This document shows, piece after piece, positions 2,830 through 13,918 of a DNA stretch of 14,144 bases; the first letter of the stretch is position 1, and the number at the start of each line of letters is the position of its first letter. The stretch is taken from contig JBHHUM010000056.1 of NCBI GenBank assembly GCA_046861645.1, positions 1 through 14,144 of the forward strand, written 5' to 3'. The notes beneath the pieces are model-generated. The model saw only the letters and a program-made list of their open reading frames with translations. It had not been told where the DNA came from and made no database searches. A program made the position numbers and the translations under genes. The stretch is from Fidelibacterota bacterium (GTDB taxonomy: Bacteria; Fidelibacterota; Marinisomatia; Marinisomatales; UBA2128).

Positions 2830-2848
2830 AGCCCTTTTGTATTTTCTC

Positions 2849-5122
2849 ATGTTGTCTTCAATCCAGAGCGAGAGGCGACACGTTCTCATCAACGGTATTG
2901 TTCAGGGTGTGGGGTTCCGTCCTTTTGTCTATAATCTTGCCGTGGACGCAGGTTTGACCGGCTATGTAACCAATACATCTAATGGTGTGGAAATTGAAGT
3001 AGAAGGTCCCCACTCGAGGGTTAGTAATTTTCTACGACAATTACAGATTAAAGCTCCCCCCCTCTCCATAATTACGAATATTGAGTCTGAATTGATACGA
3101 TTGAATGGTGATACCACGTTTATCATTCAACCATCAGAGGAAAGCGAGTCTGTGTCTACACTTATTTCTCCCGATGTTGCCGTCTGTGATGATTGTCTTT
3201 CGGAGCTCTTTGATCCAAATGATCGTCGCTATCGTTATCCTTTTATCAATTGCACAAACTGCGGTCCCCGCTATACTATCATTGAAAGTATTCCTTATGA
3301 CAGACCGTTCACATCCATGCGCGAGTTTGTGATGTGCCCTACCTGTCAAAAGGAGTATGATGATCCTACTAACCGTCGCTTCCATGCTCAACCCAATGCC
3401 TGTCCAGAGTGCGGTCCTAAGGTATCATTGCATAATCCTGATCGTAGCTTGATCCGAACGGATGATTATATTGCCGAAGCGGCTTCGCTCCTCAAGAGTG
3501 GAAGCATCCTGGCTATAAAAGGCCTGGGAGGATATCATCTGGCTGTTGATGCTACAAATAAGAGAGCAGTGCGGGAACTCCGCCGGAGGAAGGGGCGGGA
3601 AGAAAAACCTCTGGCCGTAATGGTGAAAGACATAAACAGAGCTCGTCAAATCTGCTACATTTCACCAGAAGAAGAGGACATTATCACCTCAACCCAGACG
3701 CCTATCGTATTAATAAGGAAAAAGGACAACTACGATCTGACAGAGTCAGTAGCGCCGGATAGTGACCGCTTTGGGGTCATGTTACCCTATACCCCACTAC
3801 ACCATCTACTCATGGATTATGGTTTTACCGCCTTGGTCATGACCAGCGGTAACTACAGCGAGGAACCTATCTGTATCGATAATGACGAGGCCTTCTCACG
3901 GCTGGGAAGTATCGCTGACTATTTCCTCATTCACGACAGAGATATCTATTTGCGAAGCGACGATTCGGTTGTGGTTTATCTGGAGGGCTCGCTCAGACCT
4001 ATTCGACGCAGTCGTGGTTTTGTTCCCCGTCCAGTATTTGTCAATTCTAGAGGACCTGCCGTTCTGGCTGTGGGCGGTGAATTGAAAAATACCGTCTGCC
4101 TGCTGAAGGATGATCACGCCTTTCTGAGCCAGCATATTGGAGATTTAGAAAACCTGGAGGCCTACAACTTCTTCCAGATGACCATAAAACATCTTCAGAA
4201 AATCTTCGAAACCAAACCAGAACTTATTGTCTATGACTTGCACCCCAACTATCTTTCCACTCAGTGGACGCTAGAACAAAAGAGAGTCCCTGTTCTCGGT
4301 GCTCAGCATCACCATGCTCATCTGGCATCGTGTATGGCAGAGAATGGGATTTCTGGTCCAGTCATCGGAATTATCATGGATGGTACCGGTTTTGGAACGG
4401 AGGGTACTATCTGGGGAGGAGAAATATTAATCGGCGATTATGGTAGCTTTGAACGGTATGCCCACTTTCAGACCATGCCACTTCCCGGTGGAGACGCCGC
4501 CATTAAGGCGCCATGGCGGACTGCTGTCAGTTATCTGTACCAGGTATTCGAGGGGGAAATTCCAGAACTTCCGTTCATGGAATTACACGAGATAGAGCCG
4601 ATTATTGAGATGGTTTCCAAAGATATTAATTGTATTCAGACCTCTAGTTGTGGGCGACTGTTTGATGCGGTAGCGGCCATGTGCGGAGGTCTACAGACGA
4701 TCCACTACGAAGCCCAAGCAGCGATTGGTTTCATGCAGGTTGCAGGTGGTCAGACTGATGAACCCTTTGAGTTTAGAATCAAAGATGTAGAGGGTCACAA
4801 AGAGTTGATGATTGATACTATTATCCGTGCAGTGGTTGATGCGATCAAAGACAGCCAGCCCCTCGCTGGTATCAGCCAACGGTTTCATGGGACACTCATT
4901 AAACTTTTCAGTAAAATAGCACAATACGCCAGCGATGACAGTAGTATAAGGGATGTTGTACTGAGTGGTGGAGTATTCCAAAATGAGTTACTCATTAAAG
5001 GGCTAATTCCCTTACTGGAAAACGAAGGCTTGCATGTTTTTACTCAATCTCAGGTACCGACAAATGATGGTGGATTAGCGCTTGGACAGGTCATGATAGG
5101 AAGAAACTATCTGAAACAATAG
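2849..5122 (+). CDS. hypF: Carbamoyltransferase HypF (start ATG 2849 or TTG 2837)
   Basis: Acylphosphatase domain GIVQGVGFRPF; zinc fingers CDDC...CTNC and CPTC...CPEC; KGLGGYHL; QHHHAH; DGTGFG; PTNDGGLALGQ. Confidence 0.97.
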   Translation: MLSSIQSERRHVLINGIVQGVGFRPFVYNLAVDAGLTGYVTNTSNGVEIEVEGPHSRVSNFLRQLQIKAPPLSIITNIESELIRLNGDTTFIIQPSEESESVSTLISPDVAVCDDCLSELFDPNDRRYRYPFINCTNCGPRYTIIESIPYDRPFTSMREFVMCPTCQKEYDDPTNRRFHAQPNACPECGPKVSLHNPDRSLIRTDDYIAEAASLLKSGSILAIKGLGGYHLAVDATNKRAVRELRRRKGREEKPLAVMVKDINRARQICYISPEEEDIITSTQTPIVLIRKKDNYDLTESVAPDSDRFGVMLPYTPLHHLLMDYGFTALVMTSGNYSEEPICIDNDEAFSRLGSIADYFLIHDRDIYLRSDDSVVVYLEGSLRPIRRSRGFVPRPVFVNSRGPAVLAVGGELKNTVCLLKDDHAFLSQHIGDLENLEAYNFFQMTIKHLQKIFETKPELIVYDLHPNYLSTQWTLEQKRVPVLGAQHHHAHLASCMAENGISGPVIGIIMDGTGFGTEGTIWGGEILIGDYGSFERYAHFQTMPLPGGDAAIKAPWRTAVSYLYQVFEGEIPELPFMELHEIEPIIEMVSKDINCIQTSSCGRLFDAVAAMCGGLQTIHYEAQAAIGFMQVAGGQTDEPFEFRIKDVEGHKELMIDTIIRAVVDAIKDSQPLAGISQRFHGTLIKLFSKIAQYASDDSSIRDVVLSGGVFQNELLIKGLIPLLENEGLHVFTQSQVPTNDGGLALGQVMIGRNYLKQ

Positions 5123-5130
5123 GAGAAAAT

Positions 5131-5412
5131 ATGTGTCTTGGAATCCCAGGAAAGGTAATTGAAATCTTTGAAGAAAACGGGTTGAAAATGGGCAAAATCG
5201 ATTATAGTGGTACGATAAATAAAGCCTGTCTGGAATATGTACAGGATATTCAAATTGGGCAATATACAGTAGTTCATGCTGGCTTTGGCATTTCTATCAT
5301 TGACGAAGAGGAAGCTATGAAGTCCTACGAAGCTTGGCAGGAACTAGTTGAAGCAGCTCAGAGAGCTGAGATAGATGTATTTGGAAATCCATTGAAAACT
5401 GGAAAAGTGTAG
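5131..5412 (+). CDS. hypC: Hydrogenase assembly chaperone HypC
   Basis: AGGAG SD; MCLGIPG N-terminus (Cys2); VVHAGF; DEEEA; slightly long C-terminus (93 aa). Confidence 0.95.
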   Translation: MCLGIPGKVIEIFEENGLKMGKIDYSGTINKACLEYVQDIQIGQYTVVHAGFGISIIDEEEAMKSYEAWQELVEAAQRAEIDVFGNPLKTGKV

Positions 5413-5421
5413 AGGTGAGAA

Positions 5422-5505
5422 ATGGATAGTTATTCCAGTGAGACTCTTCGTGGGATTCTTTACGAAGCCCTTCAGGAAGTTCTCCATAACTTTGGAGACG
5501 CATGA
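5422..5505 (+). CDS. Putative 27-aa small protein between hypC and hypD ([27 protein letters not shown])
   Basis: SD-like GAGGTG at 5412-5417, ATG at 5422, open frame spanning the whole gap, and stop TGA 5503-5505 overlapping the hypD start as ATGA. Confidence 0.5.
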
Positions 5506-6599
5506 AGTTTTTAGACGAATTTCGTAATTCAGAAGTTGCCAGGCAAATTTTGGTGGAAATAAAATCGACGGTAACCCAACCTTGGGTAATTATGGAAGTT
5601 TGCGGAGGGCAAACGCACTCTATCATAAAAAATGGGATTGATCAAGTTCTGTCAGAAGAAATTGAACTGGTACACGGACCCGGGTGTCCGGTTTGTGTAA
5701 CTCCTCTTGAAATGATCGATAAGGCGATAGAAATAGCCAGCAGATCAGAGGTGATATTTACCAGTTTCGGAGATATGCTCAGAGTTCCCGGTAGTCACAA
5801 GGATTTGTTTGTGGTTAAGTCTGAGGGTGGAGATGTACGCACGATCTATTCTCCCCTAAAGGCTCTTGCCATAGCTCGAGAGAATCCGGATAAGGAAGTT
5901 GTATTTTTCGCTGTGGGTTTTGAGACAACAGCTCCTGGGAATGCCATGGCGATCTATCAAGCTGACCAGGAGAAGCTAACCAATTATAGTCAACTTGTGA
6001 GCCATGTACTTGTACCACCAGCCATGACGGCGCTGTTGTCATCGGAGAATAATAGGGTTCAAGGATACTTGGCAGCAGGTCACGTTTGCACCGTTATGGG
6101 ACTGGAAGAATATGAGCCCATTGCGAGCAAATACAAAGTTCCGATAGTCGCTACTGGTTTTGAACCCGTAGACATTCTTGAAGGACTTCTCATGGTCGTG
6201 AAGCAGTTGGAAGAGGGCCGCCACGTGGTCGAAAATCAATACGCTCGCTCCGTCCAGCGACAAGGGAACCTCAGTGCGAAAAACTTGGTGAATGAAGTGT
6301 TTGAAGTGTCTAATAGAAAGTGGCGTGGTATTGGAGAAATTCAGTCCAGTGGGTTGCGAATACGTGAACGCTATGCAGCCTTTGATGCCGAGAAAAAATT
6401 CTTCGTAAATGCAATTGAAGTCAATGAATCCGAACTGTGTATCAGTGGACTGGTACTGCAAGGGCTTAAAAAACCTAACCAGTGTCCAGCTTTCGGTAAG
6501 GAATGTACCCCAACACATCCATTAGGAGCTACCATGGTTTCAGCCGAAGGTGCTTGCTCTGCTTATTATAAGTATCACCGTATCCCTGTCAAGACATGA
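5502..6599 (+). CDS. hypD: Hydrogenase formation protein HypD
   Basis: [28 protein letters not shown], and C-terminal Fe-S Cys motif C...[10 protein letters not shown]...MVSAEGAC. Confidence 0.97.
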
Positions 6600-7651
6600 C
6601 GGGAGAATTTCCAGAGGCACTTTCCTGTCCATTACCCCTGATGGATCAGGATACTATCCAGCTGGCTCATGGCGCCGGTGGTTTACTCTCCTTTGAACTG
6701 ATAGAGAAGATATTCTTACCCAGATTTGGCAACGTGATATTGGAGAGGTTAGAGGATCAGGCGGTGCTTGATGTTCTTGGGGGAAAGATGGCATTTACGA
6801 CGGACACGTTTGTTGTGGACCCTATTTTCTTTCCTGGGGGTGACATCGGAGAGTTAGCTATTAATGGAACAGTGAACGATATCGCCATGTCTGGTGCAAC
6901 ACCAGACTACATCAGTGTGGCTTTCATTCTTGAAGAAGGTCTCTCCCTTGAAATCCTCCACCGAATCACTTTATCCATGGAAAAGGCAGCAAAGAAGGCA
7001 GGTATTGCCATTGTAACGGGTGATACCAAAGTAGTGGATAAGGGTAGTTGTGATAAGGTTTTTATCAATACAACGGGTGTTGGGAGGGTTCCTGAAGGTG
7101 TAAATATTTCAGCTACAAACTTAAGACAGGGTGACAGGATTATTTTGTCTGGGACCATGGCTGATCACGGCATGGCTGTTATGACCAGTCGAGAAGGGCT
7201 CTCCTTTCAATCGCAGGTGAAGAGTGATACGGCTCCGCTGAATGGTCTGGTATCATTAATGTTTGAGCATACCGCCGAGATACACGCTATGCGAGATCCC
7301 ACACGCGGGGGTGTGGCTACGACCCTTAATGAATTCGCTCGAGCTGCCCACGTTGGCATACAGCTATATGATGATCGAATTCCCGTAAAGCCCGAGGTTA
7401 AAGGGGCGTGCGAAATTCTGGGTATTGACCCTCTTTACGTAGCTAATGAGGGAAAACTCGTTGCCTCAGTAGCCAGCAATGTGGCTAACAGTCTTGTTGA
7501 AGCTATGCATAAGCATGAATATGGTAAGGAGGCTAGCATCATTGGTGAAGTCACTTCAGAGCATCCCGGCATCGTAGTCATGAGAACTGGGCTTGGGGTA
7601 GACCGTATCTTGAATATGCCAGTGGGAGAACAACTCCCCAGAATCTGCTGA
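6596..7651 (+). CDS. hypE: Carbamoyl dehydratase HypE
   Basis: [39 protein letters not shown]-terminal PRIC; ATGA overlap with hypD. Confidence 0.97.
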
Positions 7652-7674: not shown

Positions 7675-8379
7675 ATGGAGACGGACCTAAATATTCTTTT
7701 AACAGCCGCTATCTTTATAGGCATTATCCATACGGTGATAGGTCCAGATCATTATCTTCCATTCATCATGATAGCTAAAGCAAGAAATTGGTCATTGGGG
7801 AAGACCACGTCAGTCACTCTTTTATGTGGGGTCGGGCATGTTTTAGGTTCGGTAGTACTGGGTATGGTAGGAATTGCTTTGGGAGTAGCATTAGGTATTT
7901 TGGAACAGGTAGAATCAGTGCGTAGTGAGTGGGCGAGCTGGTTACTGGTTGGCTTTGGAGTTGCTTATGCAACATGGGGCTTAAGAATTGGTTATAGGGC
8001 AAGGGAACATACTCATGTCCATCATCATAATGACAATACCCACACCCATCTTCATCAACATTTAGGGAGACATGTTCATTTGCATGATGAGGGTAAAATG
8101 TTAACGACCTGGGCACTGTTTATTGTTTTCATTTTGGGACCATGTGAACCCCTTATTCCCATTCTTATGTATCCGGCAGCTCAGGGTAGCTGGAGTGATA
8201 TCCTGTGGGTTACGTTAGCTTTTGGTATTACTACAGTCGCCACTATGACAGGTATCGTAGTGGTTACTTCCAAAGGATTATTACATATAAAGTTAGGACT
8301 GTTGGAGCGTTACATCCACGCTATTGCTGGGGTAATTATAGCCATTTCTGGTCTTTCGATAAAACTGTTTGGGTTATAA
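7675..8379 (+). CDS. His-rich integral membrane protein, UreH/NiCoT-like (DsbD_2/TauE-type fold) putative nickel transporter
   Basis: About 6 hydrophobic segments; HTVIGPDHYLP motif (HxxxxDH, NiCoT/UreH-like); loop HTHVHHHNDNTHTHLHQHLGRHVHLH; GPCEP; last gene of the hyp operon. Confidence 0.78.
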   Translation: METDLNILLTAAIFIGIIHTVIGPDHYLPFIMIAKARNWSLGKTTSVTLLCGVGHVLGSVVLGMVGIALGVALGILEQVESVRSEWASWLLVGFGVAYATWGLRIGYRAREHTHVHHHNDNTHTHLHQHLGRHVHLHDEGKMLTTWALFIVFILGPCEPLIPILMYPAAQGSWSDILWVTLAFGITTVATMTGIVVVTSKGLLHIKLGLLERYIHAIAGVIIAISGLSIKLFGL

Positions 8380-9104: not shown

Positions 9105-9785
9105 TTATTTATTAGCCTGAGTATACCGATATCCACCAAAAATAGCGTCTATATTACCAGTCTTGAGTTTAATTGTTTTCCAAATTTGAAAGTAGACGTG
9201 GACAATTACCCAGATAAGAATAAGCCACCACATAATGTGATGAGCGATTCTCGTTCCATTTAGACCACCGAAGATGAAGACCACCCAGTCCGTAGTAATA
9301 TGGAGGAATTTTGGCCACCACCAATTCAGTGAAAAGGATGCTACGTAAAGGGCAAACCCTGTGAACATGAGCAGAATTGCCAGGACATGAAAAGACAACC
9401 ATGAAATGATATCCACAGGATCTTCGTGCTCATAATCTATCTTTTCCCCCCTTAATCGGAAATAATATTTCAGTTGAATCCATGCCTTTCTCAAATTTTT
9501 CTTGGTGGGAATTAAATCGCGCCAGGGGGCATGAAACGTAGAGAAAAATATGAGATAAATGGAAATAATAATACCGACATCAAATACTATAGCAGCGATG
9601 AAATGAATAAAACGCATGTTTGCCATAAAAAAGTTTTCAAAAGGTTCCCCTGTGGGATTTACATAAGAGGGAGTATGAGCAATATAATTACCTGTGACAA
9701 GTAGTACGACAACACTGAGAAAAATGAGCCAGTGTAAAACTCTGATACTACCTGACCAAACGTAGCGAAATTTTGCTTTTTCCAT
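9105..9785 (-). CDS. cybH: Ni/Fe-hydrogenase di-heme cytochrome b subunit, copy 2 (226 aa; likely start ATG 9785, not 9971)
   Basis: YVWSGSIRVLHW, RFIHF, FTGFALY, RIAHH...HVY, AIFGGY; His18/61/182/196. Starts 2 nt after the stop of copy 1 and aligns with it without gaps. Confidence 0.92.
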   Translation of the reverse strand: MEKAKFRYVWSGSIRVLHWLIFLSVVVLLVTGNYIAHTPSYVNPTGEPFENFFMANMRFIHFIAAIVFDVGIIISIYLIFFSTFHAPWRDLIPTKKNLRKAWIQLKYYFRLRGEKIDYEHEDPVDIISWLSFHVLAILLMFTGFALYVASFSLNWWWPKFLHITTDWVVFIFGGLNGTRIAHHIMWWLILIWVIVHVYFQIWKTIKLKTGNIDAIFGGYRYTQANK

Positions 9786-9787
9786 GC

Positions 9788-10468
9788 TTACTTTCCTGCA
9801 TCGATGAATTTGTATCCACCAACGATTGCTGAAATATCGTACTGTTTCAGACGAACGCTTTTCCATACTTGGAAATAAACATGTATAAACGCCCACCCCA
9901 ATATCAACCACATACATAAATGGTGGGCAGTGCGGACCCCTTGGAGATTGCCGAACAGGTACAGAGTCCAAACGCTCAGGAAGTGCATCAGAGAAGCAAA
10001 AATACCTGTTGTGGTCCGGGGAGCAACGTAAAGAGCTATTCCTGTGAATATGGTGATAAGGCTTAGAATAGTGTAGGTTGAGACGGATAAAAGAGCCATG
10101 GGATCCATATAATCATAATGACGATGATGTTTGGAGAATCCGAAGTAGTACTTTATGCTTTTCCAGGCTTGTTTGAGGTTTGAACCAGTGGGACGAATAT
10201 CTTTCCACAGATCGTGAAATCTATAGAAGAAGATCAGGTAAGTCGCGGTCAGGAAACAGATCATCATCACGATAGCCGCCAGAAAGTGGATGAGTCGGAG
10301 ATTTGCCATGAAGAAGTTCTCAAAAGGCTCTCCTCTGGGAGCAATGAAATCAGGTGGAAAGGCGATATAATAGCCCGTGATTGTCAAGATTGATATGCTG
10401 AAAAAAGTAAACCAATGCGTCAATCGAATTGGCCAAGACCATACATACTTAACCTCTTTTCTGGGCAT
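9788..10468 (-). CDS. cybH: Ni/Fe-hydrogenase di-heme cytochrome b subunit, copy 1 (226 aa)
   Basis: YVWSWPIRLTHW, RLIHF, FTGIALY, RTAHH...HVY, SAIVGGYK; His18/61/182/196. Confidence 0.93.
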   Translation of the reverse strand: MPRKEVKYVWSWPIRLTHWFTFFSISILTITGYYIAFPPDFIAPRGEPFENFFMANLRLIHFLAAIVMMICFLTATYLIFFYRFHDLWKDIRPTGSNLKQAWKSIKYYFGFSKHHRHYDYMDPMALLSVSTYTILSLITIFTGIALYVAPRTTTGIFASLMHFLSVWTLYLFGNLQGVRTAHHLCMWLILGWAFIHVYFQVWKSVRLKQYDISAIVGGYKFIDAGK

Positions 10469-10480
10469 AGGAGTTAGCTT

Positions 10481-12100
10481 TTAGACAACTTGAGGAAACA
10501 AGCCATTCCTTGTTTGGAACTTCAGGATCTTGTTTGAGCTCGGTTCAATCACGTGAACCCCACAACCCAGTCATGGGTCGAATGAATGTACCACTCGCAT
10601 CACCTCTATGGGTTGTTCAGGGTTTTCGACAGGAGTACCAATGAGGGCTTCTTCAACTGGGCCTCTGGTACCGTTATCGTCCCTGGGGGAGAAATTCCAG
10701 GTTGAGGGAGAGACAACCTGGTAGTTTTTCAGCACACCATTTTCAATATTATTCCAATGGGCTAGAGCGCCTCTAGGGGCCTCCCAGGTACCTACCCCCA
10801 TAGCCGAATCAGGGAGATCGTAGGAATACCAGAGATCAGTCTGATCATTCTTGATGTTCTCGGTTAATTCCCCTGTCCAATCAACCATTTCATCTACGAT
10901 GAGTTTACATTCGAGAGCGCGAGCAGCAACCCTCCCAAGCGTGGAAAGTAATACCTCTGGTTTACCCCCGACGCCTAAGGCTTCAAGTGTAGAATTAATA
11001 AGGGATTGAGCTTTCTCACCCCCTGATAAATAAGCGACTAACATCCGTGATAGAGGTCCGACTTCCATTGGCTTTCCGTTTAAGCGAGGTGCTTTCACCC
11101 AACTATATTTATCGTCGGGGTTAATACCGGTATACTTGGGCTTGGTTTGACCTTCTGCTGGGTTCCGGGGTGCACTCTTATCAGTATACCAACTGTGCGT
11201 AATATGCTCCGTCACCTGGTTGACAGAGGGTTTATGTAATTCAAGTTTTCCATCAAAGACAGCCCCTTGAGGTAAGAGGCGCTTTTCAGGGTCGTGGCTG
11301 TCGTCTTCGAATACTCCCCAGGCAAGATAGTTGGTATGTCCTGTGCCTATGGCAGCCCAGTCCAAATAATGGGGTGCCACAGCAAGAACATCCGGGATAT
11401 AAACATTAGTTACCCAATCTTGAAGTTCCTTAACCATGGAGAAGGCTTTAGCCAGAGTTTCTGATGTAGGAGTAATCGTCACCCCCCCGGGAGCTGCAGT
11501 CATCATGTGAGGAAACTTTCCACCGAAGAGAGCCAGTAGTTGGGAAGCTTTGGCCTGCATCTCCAGAGCCTCCAGATAATGAGCTACTGCTAATAGATTA
11601 ATTTCGGGTGATAGCTTATATGCAGGATGCCCCCAATAGGCATTGGCGAAGGGTCCCAACTGACCGCTCTCGACGAAGGATTTCAACTTTTTTTGTACCT
11701 TTTTCAGAGAAGCTTCAGTTGGCCTTGCGGAGAGGGCGCTTACCACGTCCACATAATCAAGGGCGTGTAAATGATAAAAAGCAAGGATGTGAGAATGAAC
11801 AAATTGTGCACCTTCAATGATATTACGAATGATTCTTGCATTATCGGGGGGTGTCACTCCAAAGGCATCTTCGAGCCCGAATGTGGAAGTGTGTCCATGT
11901 GAAATAGGGCAAACCCCGCAGATTCTTTGGGAGAGATACCACGCATCCCTCGGATCGCGGTTTTTAAGGACGATCTCCATACCTCTGAAAAGAGGGCTCG
12001 TACTCCAAGCGTCCTTTACTTTTCCATTTTCAACTTCCACCTCAATTCTCAAGTGTCCTTCCAGTCGAGTAAAGGGGTCAATAGTAATTTTAGTTGCCAT
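10481..12100 (-). CDS. hysA: [NiFeSe] hydrogenase large subunit, selenoprotein (539 aa; in-frame TGA 10571-10573 = Sec510)
   Basis: AAGGAG SD; DPFTRLEGH; L1 motif RICGVC (C61/C64). Reading through the TGA gives SFDP-U-LGCGVH-VIEPSSNKILKFQTRNGLFPQVV-TAA(10481-10483), which restores the L2 motif and a cleavable C-terminal tail. Confidence 0.93.
10535..10570 (-). promoter_or_regulatory. Putative bacterial SECIS element immediately 3' of the Sec UGA
   Basis: mRNA reads UGA-C-UGGGUU-GUGG-GGUUCA-CGUGAU-UGAACC-G-AGCUCA. A perfect 6-bp upper stem starts 11 nt after the UGA with a G-containing loop, and a 6-bp lower stem has two G-U pairs. Confidence 0.75.
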
Positions 12101-13312: not shown

Positions 13313-13885
13313 TCACGCCGTTTCTGTAAGACTCCTGATCAAGGTATGATAACAAGACTTGTTGCCTTCTTTTAGAAGTGGACAGGCCTCGGAGTAAGAC
13401 GTATTGCAGTGCAGACAGATCAGGTCGACCTCATGGCGATATTCATGCAAAAGAATGGTAATATATTGGTGTAGAATCCTTTCCAGCTCCGCCAGCTCTT
13501 TATTATCAAAATGTGTAAAAATGCGGTTTTCTTTCTGTCGCCGTAGCTGGAAATAACGTTCCACAATTCGTTCCCCTTCGGGGAGAATTCTGACAATGGC
13601 CATCCTGCGGTCCGTGTCCGGAATAGTCCGTTCTACAAGACCATGAGTTACCAGATTGTGTACTGACTTACTGGCTGCCGGCCGGCTGATCATCAGGAAT
13701 CTGGCCAGGTTACTGACCGAAAAAGCTCCAGAGATGTGCAAGATCTTTAGTATTTCAAACTGGCGTCTTGATAGTGAAACTACGCTACTCTCTGCAATTA
13801 GGTTTTGCTCTACAATTTGGTTGATAAACTTAGAGAGGATATAAAGCAGGAAAGAGACGTTTTTAGATTTTCTATCAGTTGGCAT
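13313..13885 (-). CDS. MarR-family winged-helix regulator with C-terminal Cys-rich extension (start ATG 13885 or TTG 13897)
   Basis: LSRRQFEILKIL, SVSNLARFLMISRPAASKSVHNLVTHGLVER, DRR wing motif, ILPEGE; tail CLHC-x7-C-x9-C. Confidence 0.88.
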   Translation of the reverse strand: MPTDRKSKNVSFLLYILSKFINQIVEQNLIAESSVVSLSRRQFEILKILHISGAFSVSNLARFLMISRPAASKSVHNLVTHGLVERTIPDTDRRMAIVRILPEGERIVERYFQLRRQKENRIFTHFDNKELAELERILHQYITILLHEYRHEVDLICLHCNTSYSEACPLLKEGNKSCYHTLIRSLTETA

Positions 13886-13895
13886 TTGACAAACC

Positions 13896-13918
13896 AAGTT
13901 AATGGTTAACTTAGTTAA
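13896..13918. promoter_or_regulatory. Overlapping palindromes, candidate MarR operator(s)
   Basis: AAGTTAA-tgg-TTAACTT (13896-13912) and TTAACT-t-AGTTAA (13906-13918) lie between the predicted -10 box and the marR start. Confidence 0.55.

Follow-up and report, generated by a model that had tools for sequence, protein, structure and literature searches.

A probable selenocysteine-containing hydrogenase encoded beside two cytochrome b genes in a Marinimicrobia genome

Hydrogenases of the [NiFeSe] type with a C-terminal UxxC motif, in which U is selenocysteine (Sec), are described as well characterised in Groups 1 and 3 in the available text of one article (PMC13582414), and the accessible part of the HydDB paper names 1a, 3a, and 3c as the only subgroups with [NiFeSe] variants (PMC5037454, Table 1). 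A 2026 review, as far as its available sections go, regards these enzymes as exclusive to sulfate reducers and methanogens (PMC13188914). In the portion available of a further paper, three-gene periplasmic [NiFeSe] clusters that depend on twin-arginine translocation (Tat) and include cytochrome b were described in the Firmicutes Syntrophaceticus schinkii, Thermacetogenium phaeum, Carboxydothermus hydrogenoformans, and Desulfosporosinus orientis (PMC5113046). That open reading frame (ORF) callers truncate hidden Sec hydrogenases is a known annotation problem according to the accessible passages of two articles (PMC4730141, PMC13582414). Here, we analysed a stretch of 14,144 nt (contig JBHHUM010000056.1 of assembly GCA_046861645.1; hereafter the window), in which the gene for a hydrogenase large subunit is interrupted by an in-frame TGA at 10573..10571. 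The UGA very probably encodes Sec, judging from sequence comparisons, and the gene would then specify the catalytic subunit for a [NiFeSe] hydrogenase that takes up H2 for respiration. The enzyme type and cytochrome-b-linked [NiFeSe] clusters are already known, and what is new is the host group: in the literature available to searches on Marinimicrobia hydrogenases, supplements aside, no published report of a Sec hydrogenase in Marinimicrobia was found.

An in-frame TGA at the first-cysteine position

The large-subunit frame, which runs from 12100 on the minus strand, reads ...EVMRVVHSFDP up to the TGA at 10573..10571, continues with LGCGVHVIEPSSNKILKFQTRNGLFPQVV, and ends in the TAA at 10483..10481. 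This TGA is the only one in the frame and corresponds to codon 510 of 539. Under translation table 11, the ORF is 509 aa long (10571..12100), and it extends to 539 aa when the TGA is read through. The read-through protein contains both Ni-binding motifs, the N-terminal RICGVCPISH (RxCGxCxxxH type) and the C-terminal DPULGCGVH, and matched PF00374 (618 bits) and the NCBIfam model NF033181 'NiFeSe_hydrog' (626.1 bits, curated cut-off of 600). NF033181 is blind to the difference between Sec and Cys: all five Cys homologs tested passed (602.7–628.6 bits), and three of three truncated Sec records fell just under the cut-off of 600 (567–595 bits). Solved mature large subunits stop at the aligned His (residue 516 of the query; 4u9h_L and others), and the tail after His516 is expected to be cut off, presumably by the maturation endopeptidase. 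A split, VhuU-like arrangement was considered and rejected; it would do away with the Sec, and the stretch from the TGA to the Cys/His residues contains no start codon.

The genes for Sec synthesis and insertion were searched for in the host genome (2.51 Mb in 184 contigs, 94.5% complete). One tRNA-Sec was found at 63.9 bits, above the Rfam gathering score (47), which none of 17 other matches reached; ARAGORN called the same tRNA as tRNA-SeC with the anticodon tca. The selA (531 bits) and selB (395 bits) genes are adjacent to each other. The selD gene (390 bits; L018, G000:C34:25008-25934) has one in-frame TGA of its own and reads GSGUACK, which matches UxxK, the Sec motif listed for SelD in the available text of a review (PMC13188914). 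Each of selA, selB, selC, and selD exceeded its curated or gathering cut-off. Elsewhere, TGA is an ordinary stop, which ends five of the 15 window genes and 386 of the 1067 genome frames of at least 300 codons, and this last count ruled out a genome-wide reassignment of TGA (codes 4 or 25). Each of the four other genomes with the TGA form had both selA and selB, as did one genus-mate that has no such hydrogenase. Approximately 6.5 kb from selD, a 65-aa frame resembling the SelD N-terminus was observed (L020, G000:C34:32445-32582), which likewise has one in-frame TGA.

The codon at the motif position was compared over 202 sources (201 stored loci and the window), where TGC occurred 107 times, TGT 58 times, and TGA eight times. 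The eight TGA loci represent six distinct genes (L022 is a copy of the window, and L052 and L201 are identical), and in all six the reading frame and the residues LGCGVHVIEP.SN after the TGA are kept. A TGA at this motif position is not due to chance. Among 401 genomes of the phylum, five had a match at E<=1e-180, and all five were recorded as '1 TGA'. The set of 41 genomes, consisting of the host (G000) and 40 relatives, contained the TGA form in two (G000 and G013); 15 other genomes of this set had only Cys-type homologs with 45–51% identity, and none of the three same-genus genomes searched with the relatives had any match. Scans of genome contigs and metagenome contigs yielded one TGA-type locus each, among at least 79 and at least 80 loci listed, respectively, these lists being weighted towards Cys forms.

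The same division was seen at the protein level. Among the 120 database clusters listed, 21 (P0002–P0022; 72–100% identity) were 508 or 509 aa long and ended in HSFDP or HSYDP, and 97 others (58–67% identity) carried DPC[LI][AS]C..H, i.e., Cys. Of the same 120, P0119 was an N-terminally cut fragment with the HS[FY]DP ending, and P0023 stopped earlier. At NCBI, two of the truncated proteins bear the name 'nickel-dependent hydrogenase large subunit'. The members of cluster 2 with 31–38 aa were inspected as candidates for the C-terminal tail and proved to be unrelated short peptides.

A candidate Sec insertion sequence (SECIS) hairpin, GGUUCA-CGUGAU-UGAACC, begins 11 nt 3' of the UGA, a spacing that agrees with the minimal E. 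coli fdhF element, and has G at loop position 2. In the available part of one article, a G at the second loop position is reported to be universal in bacterial SECIS loops (PMC13582414). The hairpin is identical letter for letter in the six distinct TGA genes. When these genes were aligned by codon, 339 of the 363 amino-acid-invariant degenerate codons (93%) varied synonymously, the least variable 10-codon window of the whole gene was that of codons 509–519 (2/10 varied), and codons 514–519, which make up the hairpin, were invariant. Five Cys-type sister genes of similar divergence (79–88% identity) were used as a control: 307 of 343 codons varied overall, 10 of the 12 codons equivalent to the hairpin region varied, and the lowest window (5/10) was located elsewhere. 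The constraint on the hairpin acts at the RNA level and in the clade of TGA-bearing genes (Sec clade) only. The hairpin is a structurally plausible SECIS candidate under constraint, and its binding by SelB is putative.

The reading of the UGA as Sec thus rests on the Sec machinery, the otherwise ordinary use of TGA as a stop, the conservation of the TGA and of the residues downstream, the RNA-level constraint, the G in the loop, and the contigs of four sequencing runs presented below. The original prediction, made from the letters of the window, had the ORF stop at VVHSFDP-TGA and the frame go on through LGCGVH and 23 further residues to the TAA at 10481-10483. These coordinates were exact, and translation with TGA as U returned the predicted length of 539 aa and the motif DPULGCGVH. 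The hidden Sec that it proposed at the first-Cys position is supported by the machinery, the conserved TGA, and the hairpin constraint. It also held that the sel genes must lie outside the window, and tRNA-Sec, selA, selB, and selD were indeed found elsewhere in the genome. The homologs, which were to be checked for Cys or TGA at this codon, carried TGC/TGT or TGA, and the protease of the HyaD/HybD type that it named is encoded within the window (Table 1).

Sequence accuracy and rival explanations

The codon at 10571-10573 was covered by Logan contigs of four runs (X1–X4), and no other letter was reported. The four runs represent one sample, which is labelled as a hydrothermal vent metagenome and is possibly the window's own source. 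All of the X1–X4 contigs break at 10539-10582 (44 nt), where their summed depth is 5–12 times that of the flanks, and the loose contig ends there match downstream sequences of the L199/L201 type and sequences resembling that of L023. The 44-nt SECIS core is identical in at least three co-occurring lineages and behaves as an assembly repeat. A core shared among co-occurring variants fits the hairpin constraint and provides an extra, non-independent confirmation of the TGA.

Several points weigh against reading the UGA as Sec. The support from the four runs comes from a single sample and consists of assembled contigs rather than raw reads. An Rfam scan of 10400-10700 (E<=10) found no SECIS family and returned two snoRNA chance matches (E>1). 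The folding energy of the hairpin is ordinary (z of -0.88; 37 of 200 shuffles fold as well), and the 111-nt region folds no better than shuffles (z of -1.03); folding energy by itself lends no support to the hairpin. The invariance of the hairpin precludes covariation, so that its pairing stays predicted. The DNA comparison of the hairpin comprised six genes and left out the 15 HSYDP-type clusters, the half of the Sec clade that has diverged further.

Three rival explanations were weighed against these observations. The TGA could be a sequencing or assembly error for TGC or TGT, an objection that the original prediction had itself named, and the origin of the window from a metagenome-type assembly of 184 contigs speaks for it. 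However, the assembled contigs of the four runs show TGA, and the codon is likewise TGA in another five genes, which come from other genomes or metagenomes; an error is effectively refuted. Alternatively, the TGA could be a genuine stop, which would make the gene a decaying pseudogene or the product an inactive 509-residue protein without two of the four metal ligands. The table 11 ORF of 509 aa, the 509-aa proteins in public records, and the unexceptional energy of the hairpin are compatible with this explanation, but 21 clusters, with identities reaching down to 72%, share the stop at this codon, and 6/6 genes keep the frame and residues past the TGA. Moreover, the full set of maturation genes is intact, as are the protease and the Sec machinery, and the large subunit is the only PF00374 gene of the genome and adjoins an intact hyp operon. 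We consider a genuine stop very improbable.

The third explanation accepts the read-through and questions the residue. The UGA could be recoded to cysteine or another residue, either by a tRNA-Sec-like tRNA that accepts Cys or by near-cognate read-through, which would yield an ordinary [NiFe] enzyme. There is precedent in tRNA(ReC)-like tRNAs with UCA or GCA anticodons, which recode UGA given a SECIS according to the available text of one article (PMC13582414). In the present genome, however, the tRNA scored above the Rfam gathering score for tRNA-Sec, and selA and selD, which are needed only for making Sec, are intact, with selD itself using UGA at a known Sec position. A lineage that required Cys could, in addition, use TGC or TGT, as the sister clade does. 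Recoding to Cys is therefore improbable, though less so than a genuine stop, and Sec is retained as the reading of codon 510.

Locus, host, and evolution of the Sec clade

The features of the locus are listed in Table 1.

Table 1. Features of the hydrogenase locus in the window.
Feature	Position	Strand	Basis or remark
Hydrogenase large subunit, 539 codons including Sec510	10481..12100	minus	Translation with TGA=U; stop TAA at 10483..10481
UGA codon read as selenocysteine (probable), residue 510	10571..10573	minus	First-Cys position of DPCxxCxxH
C-terminal extension, 23 residues past His516	10484..10552	minus	Translation
Candidate SECIS hairpin	10542..10559	minus	Minimum-free-energy fold; stem GGUUCA/UGAACC, loop CGUGAU
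Hydrogenase small subunit, 374 aa	12139..13263	minus	TIGR00391 hydA, 396.5 bits (cut-off 179.5)
Cytochrome b subunit 1, 226 aa	9788..10468	minus	TIGR02125, 148.4 bits (cut-off 121.5); PF01292
Cytochrome b subunit 2, 226 aa from ATG at 9785	9105..9785	minus	TIGR02125, 148 bits
HyaD/HybD-type maturation endopeptidase, 169 aa	8446..8955	minus	TIGR00072, 117.6 bits (cut-off 47.45)
hypA	1614-1985	plus	Marginal, 87.6 bits (cut-off 88.1)
hypB	2032-2829	plus	Above curated cut-off
hypF	2837-5122	plus	Above curated cut-off
hypC	5131-5412	plus	Above curated cut-off
hypD	5502-6599	plus	Above curated cut-off
hypE	6596-7651	plus	Above curated cut-off
DsbD_2/NicO-like membrane protein, 234 aa, after hypE	7675..8379	plus	PF13386, 32.6 bits (cut-off 24.9)

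The translation of the small subunit shows a Tat motif (RRDFLKY) and, at the C-terminus, a hydrophobic tail, which aligns with the anchors of the MBH and Hyd-1 small subunits (8pou_S, 4gd3_S). At its medial Fe-S cluster, Cys replaces the usual Pro (WCIGAGSPCIGC), so that 'fpi' of 8pou_S aligns to 'wci'; the MBH-type motif for comparison is sfPiqsghgCigC (8pou_S). This replacement predicts a [4Fe-4S] instead of a [3Fe-4S] cluster. In the survey of the medial cluster, Cys was found in 8/8 TGA loci and in 50 Cys-sister loci, Pro was found in 89 more distant loci, and 25 loci had no detected small-subunit motif. As this Cys is common to the TGA and Cys-sister loci, the four-Cys medial cluster predates the switch to Sec and is not tied to it.

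The two cytochrome b genes lie in tandem, 2 nt apart, and are 45% identical to each other. The tandem pair was present in 6/6 distinct Sec loci, whereas 12/12 Cys-sister loci examined had a single cytochrome b. The conserved doubling of cytochrome b is the one unusual anatomical feature of the enzyme. The maturation endopeptidase scored 142.2 bits on TIGR00140, under its cut-off of 151.8. The membrane protein encoded after hypE had no NCBIfam match, and its look-alikes included clusters with the names NicO, HoxN, and UreH; it is probably a nickel permease that serves the hydrogenase. A gene for a MarR-family regulator (13313-13897, minus) was observed directly upstream of the small subunit on the same strand. 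At the level of its genes, the locus has what is expected of a membrane-bound, cytochrome-b-linked group 1 uptake hydrogenase (HydABC/Hya type).

The following scheme can be proposed for the enzyme. SelB and Sec-tRNA(UCA) would decode the UGA at 10573..10571, with SelB being recruited by the mRNA hairpin at 10559..10542, and selenium would take the place of sulfur in the terminal nickel ligand provided by the first Cys of DPCxxCxxH. The NiFe(CO)(CN)2 centre would be delivered to the 539-residue precursor by the HypABCDEF proteins encoded in the window, after which the HyaD-type protease would remove the last 23 residues. The large and small subunits would then be exported together via Tat, the small subunit with a predicted set of three clusters of the [4Fe-4S] type, and the C-terminal helix of the latter would hold the enzyme on the outer face of the membrane. 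Electrons would pass to the two cytochrome b subunits and from there to the quinone pool.

The host was placed by EF-Tu, for which all six organism-named entries among the best 120 matches (89–90% identity) were 'Candidatus Marinimicrobia' or 'Neomarinimicrobiota' (SAR406). Its genome contains an aa3-type oxidase set (L202, G000:C67:27916-31515) with a CoxB-like gene, a CtaD-like gene (570 bits, curated cut-off of 671), and two CtaE-like frames. The cbb3 oxidase gene ccoN was also searched for, and its sole weak match (28.6 bits) proved to be an aa3-type CtaD-like gene. No dsrA was found in the host genome at its completeness of 94.5%, and the host is thus not a sulfate reducer by that marker; nor is it a methanogen. 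The host may respire oxygen, and its H2 oxidation may be coupled to O2.

A quick maximum-likelihood tree (LG+G4, SH-aLRT only) was calculated from 21 Sec rows, every second Cys row (49 of 97), and 13 chosen outgroup loci, leaving out P0023, P0119, and the HysA-type and Firmicutes [NiFeSe] sequences. The Sec rows formed one clade (support of 99), which was sister to the Cys clade (92), and both were apart from the Cys-type outgroups (100). A single change suffices to explain the Cys/Sec state on this tree. With Cys on both sides, and given the sampling and rooting of this tree, the most economical interpretation is a putative switch from Cys to Sec at the base of the clade. Thirteen positions of the large subunit (13, 35, 36, 41, 55, 66, 107, 112, 196, 198, 199, 464, and 470) were fixed in the 21 Sec-clade proteins and differed in 97% or more of the 97 proteins from the Cys-type sister clade, examples being W107A, M198H, and G35S/T36P.

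A wider scenario is conceivable, although we regard it as rather doubtful. The Sec clade may have arisen by its own Cys-to-Sec switch, apart from the Desulfovibrio Hys lineage, in a family of membrane-bound quinone-reducing hydrogenases, the switch being accompanied by a doubling of cytochrome b, and oxygen-respiring or microaerobic vent Marinimicrobia may use these enzymes to burn H2, with selenium conferring O2 resistance. The independence of the switch from Hys is suggested by the score rankings of PDB and NCBIfam only. If the scenario is true, H2 oxidation in these relatives of SAR406 would be selenium-dependent, and [NiFeSe] chemistry would extend beyond strict anaerobes; should the enzyme operate together with oxygen respiration, it would offer a natural test of whether selenium shields the nickel site from O2. 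The clade is currently listed as 509-residue proteins without two metal ligands, and surveys of hydrogenases or selenoproteins based on called ORFs miss or misjudge its members.

Comparison with described hydrogenases

Among PDB entries, the large subunit matched 1h2a_L best (562 bits), followed by 4u9h, 1frf, and 2frv, which are Cys-type periplasmic [NiFe] enzymes, and then by Hyd-2 (~475 bits) and Hyd-1/MBH (394–443 bits). The [NiFeSe] structures from Desulfovibrio and Desulfomicrobium scored 343–357 bits, with HysA first appearing at rank 41 of the PDB matches. The large subunit is accordingly nearer to the Cys-type enzymes of D. vulgaris Miyazaki and D. gigas than to Hys. On the HysA model (NF045518 / NF045520 family), it reached 456.2 of the required 780 bits; the small subunit (263.8 bits, cut-off of 470) and the protease (99.7 bits, cut-off of 190) likewise stayed below the thresholds of the HysAB-type models. 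The protein would be a [NiFeSe] hydrogenase by every sequence-level mark of the C-terminal UxxC type, and it is outside the HysAB family. Of the likeness to Hys drawn in the original prediction, the Sec-type hydrogenase held and the Hys type did not (456 against 780 bits on the HysA model; rank 41 in PDB).

Hys enzymes have all-[4Fe-4S] clusters and are soluble or lipid-anchored heterodimers without a cytochrome b subunit. The HysAB enzymes of D. vulgaris Hildenborough and Desulfomicrobium baculatum (2wpn, 5jsh, 1cc1, 4kl8) and the present enzyme both have Sec as the first ligand in DP(U)xxCxxH, and both also have Cys where Pro is usual in the medial cluster, along with a C-terminal extension and a protease of their own. 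They differ in the two cytochrome b genes and the hydrophobic C-terminal tail of the small subunit at the present locus, and their relationship is distant: against the Hys structures the large subunit reaches 343–357 bits, compared with 562 bits for the Cys-type enzyme of D. vulgaris Miyazaki. The Wolinella HydABC, E. coli Hyd-1, and Cupriavidus MBH enzymes resemble it in being Tat-exported heterodimers with a C-terminal anchor and a TIGR02125 cytochrome b; however, their Ni ligands are all Cys, and their medial cluster has Pro ('sfpiqsghgcigc', 8pou_S).

The Cys-type sister clade (Nitrospirota, Desulfobulbaceae, and 'Deltaproteobacteria' metagenome-assembled genomes; e.g., L040-L061 and P0024-P0121) is 58–67% identical and has the same order of small subunit, large subunit, and cytochrome b, the same medial Cys, and NF033181 scores of 603–629 bits. 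It differs from the Sec clade in having TGC/TGT at the motif codon, one cytochrome b, no synonymous constraint after the codon, and other residues at the 13 positions. The Firmicutes clusters, which were compared by their description in the accessible text (PMC5113046), likewise combine a Tat-signal small subunit with a large subunit of the Sec type and a third subunit resembling cytochrome b, in hosts other than classical sulfate reducers of the Desulfovibrio type. The locus in the window differs from them in its two cytochrome b genes, the adjacent hyp genes, and a Marinimicrobia host with an aa3-type oxidase. Together with these published Firmicutes cases, it extends the range of hosts and ecological settings known for [NiFeSe] enzymes.

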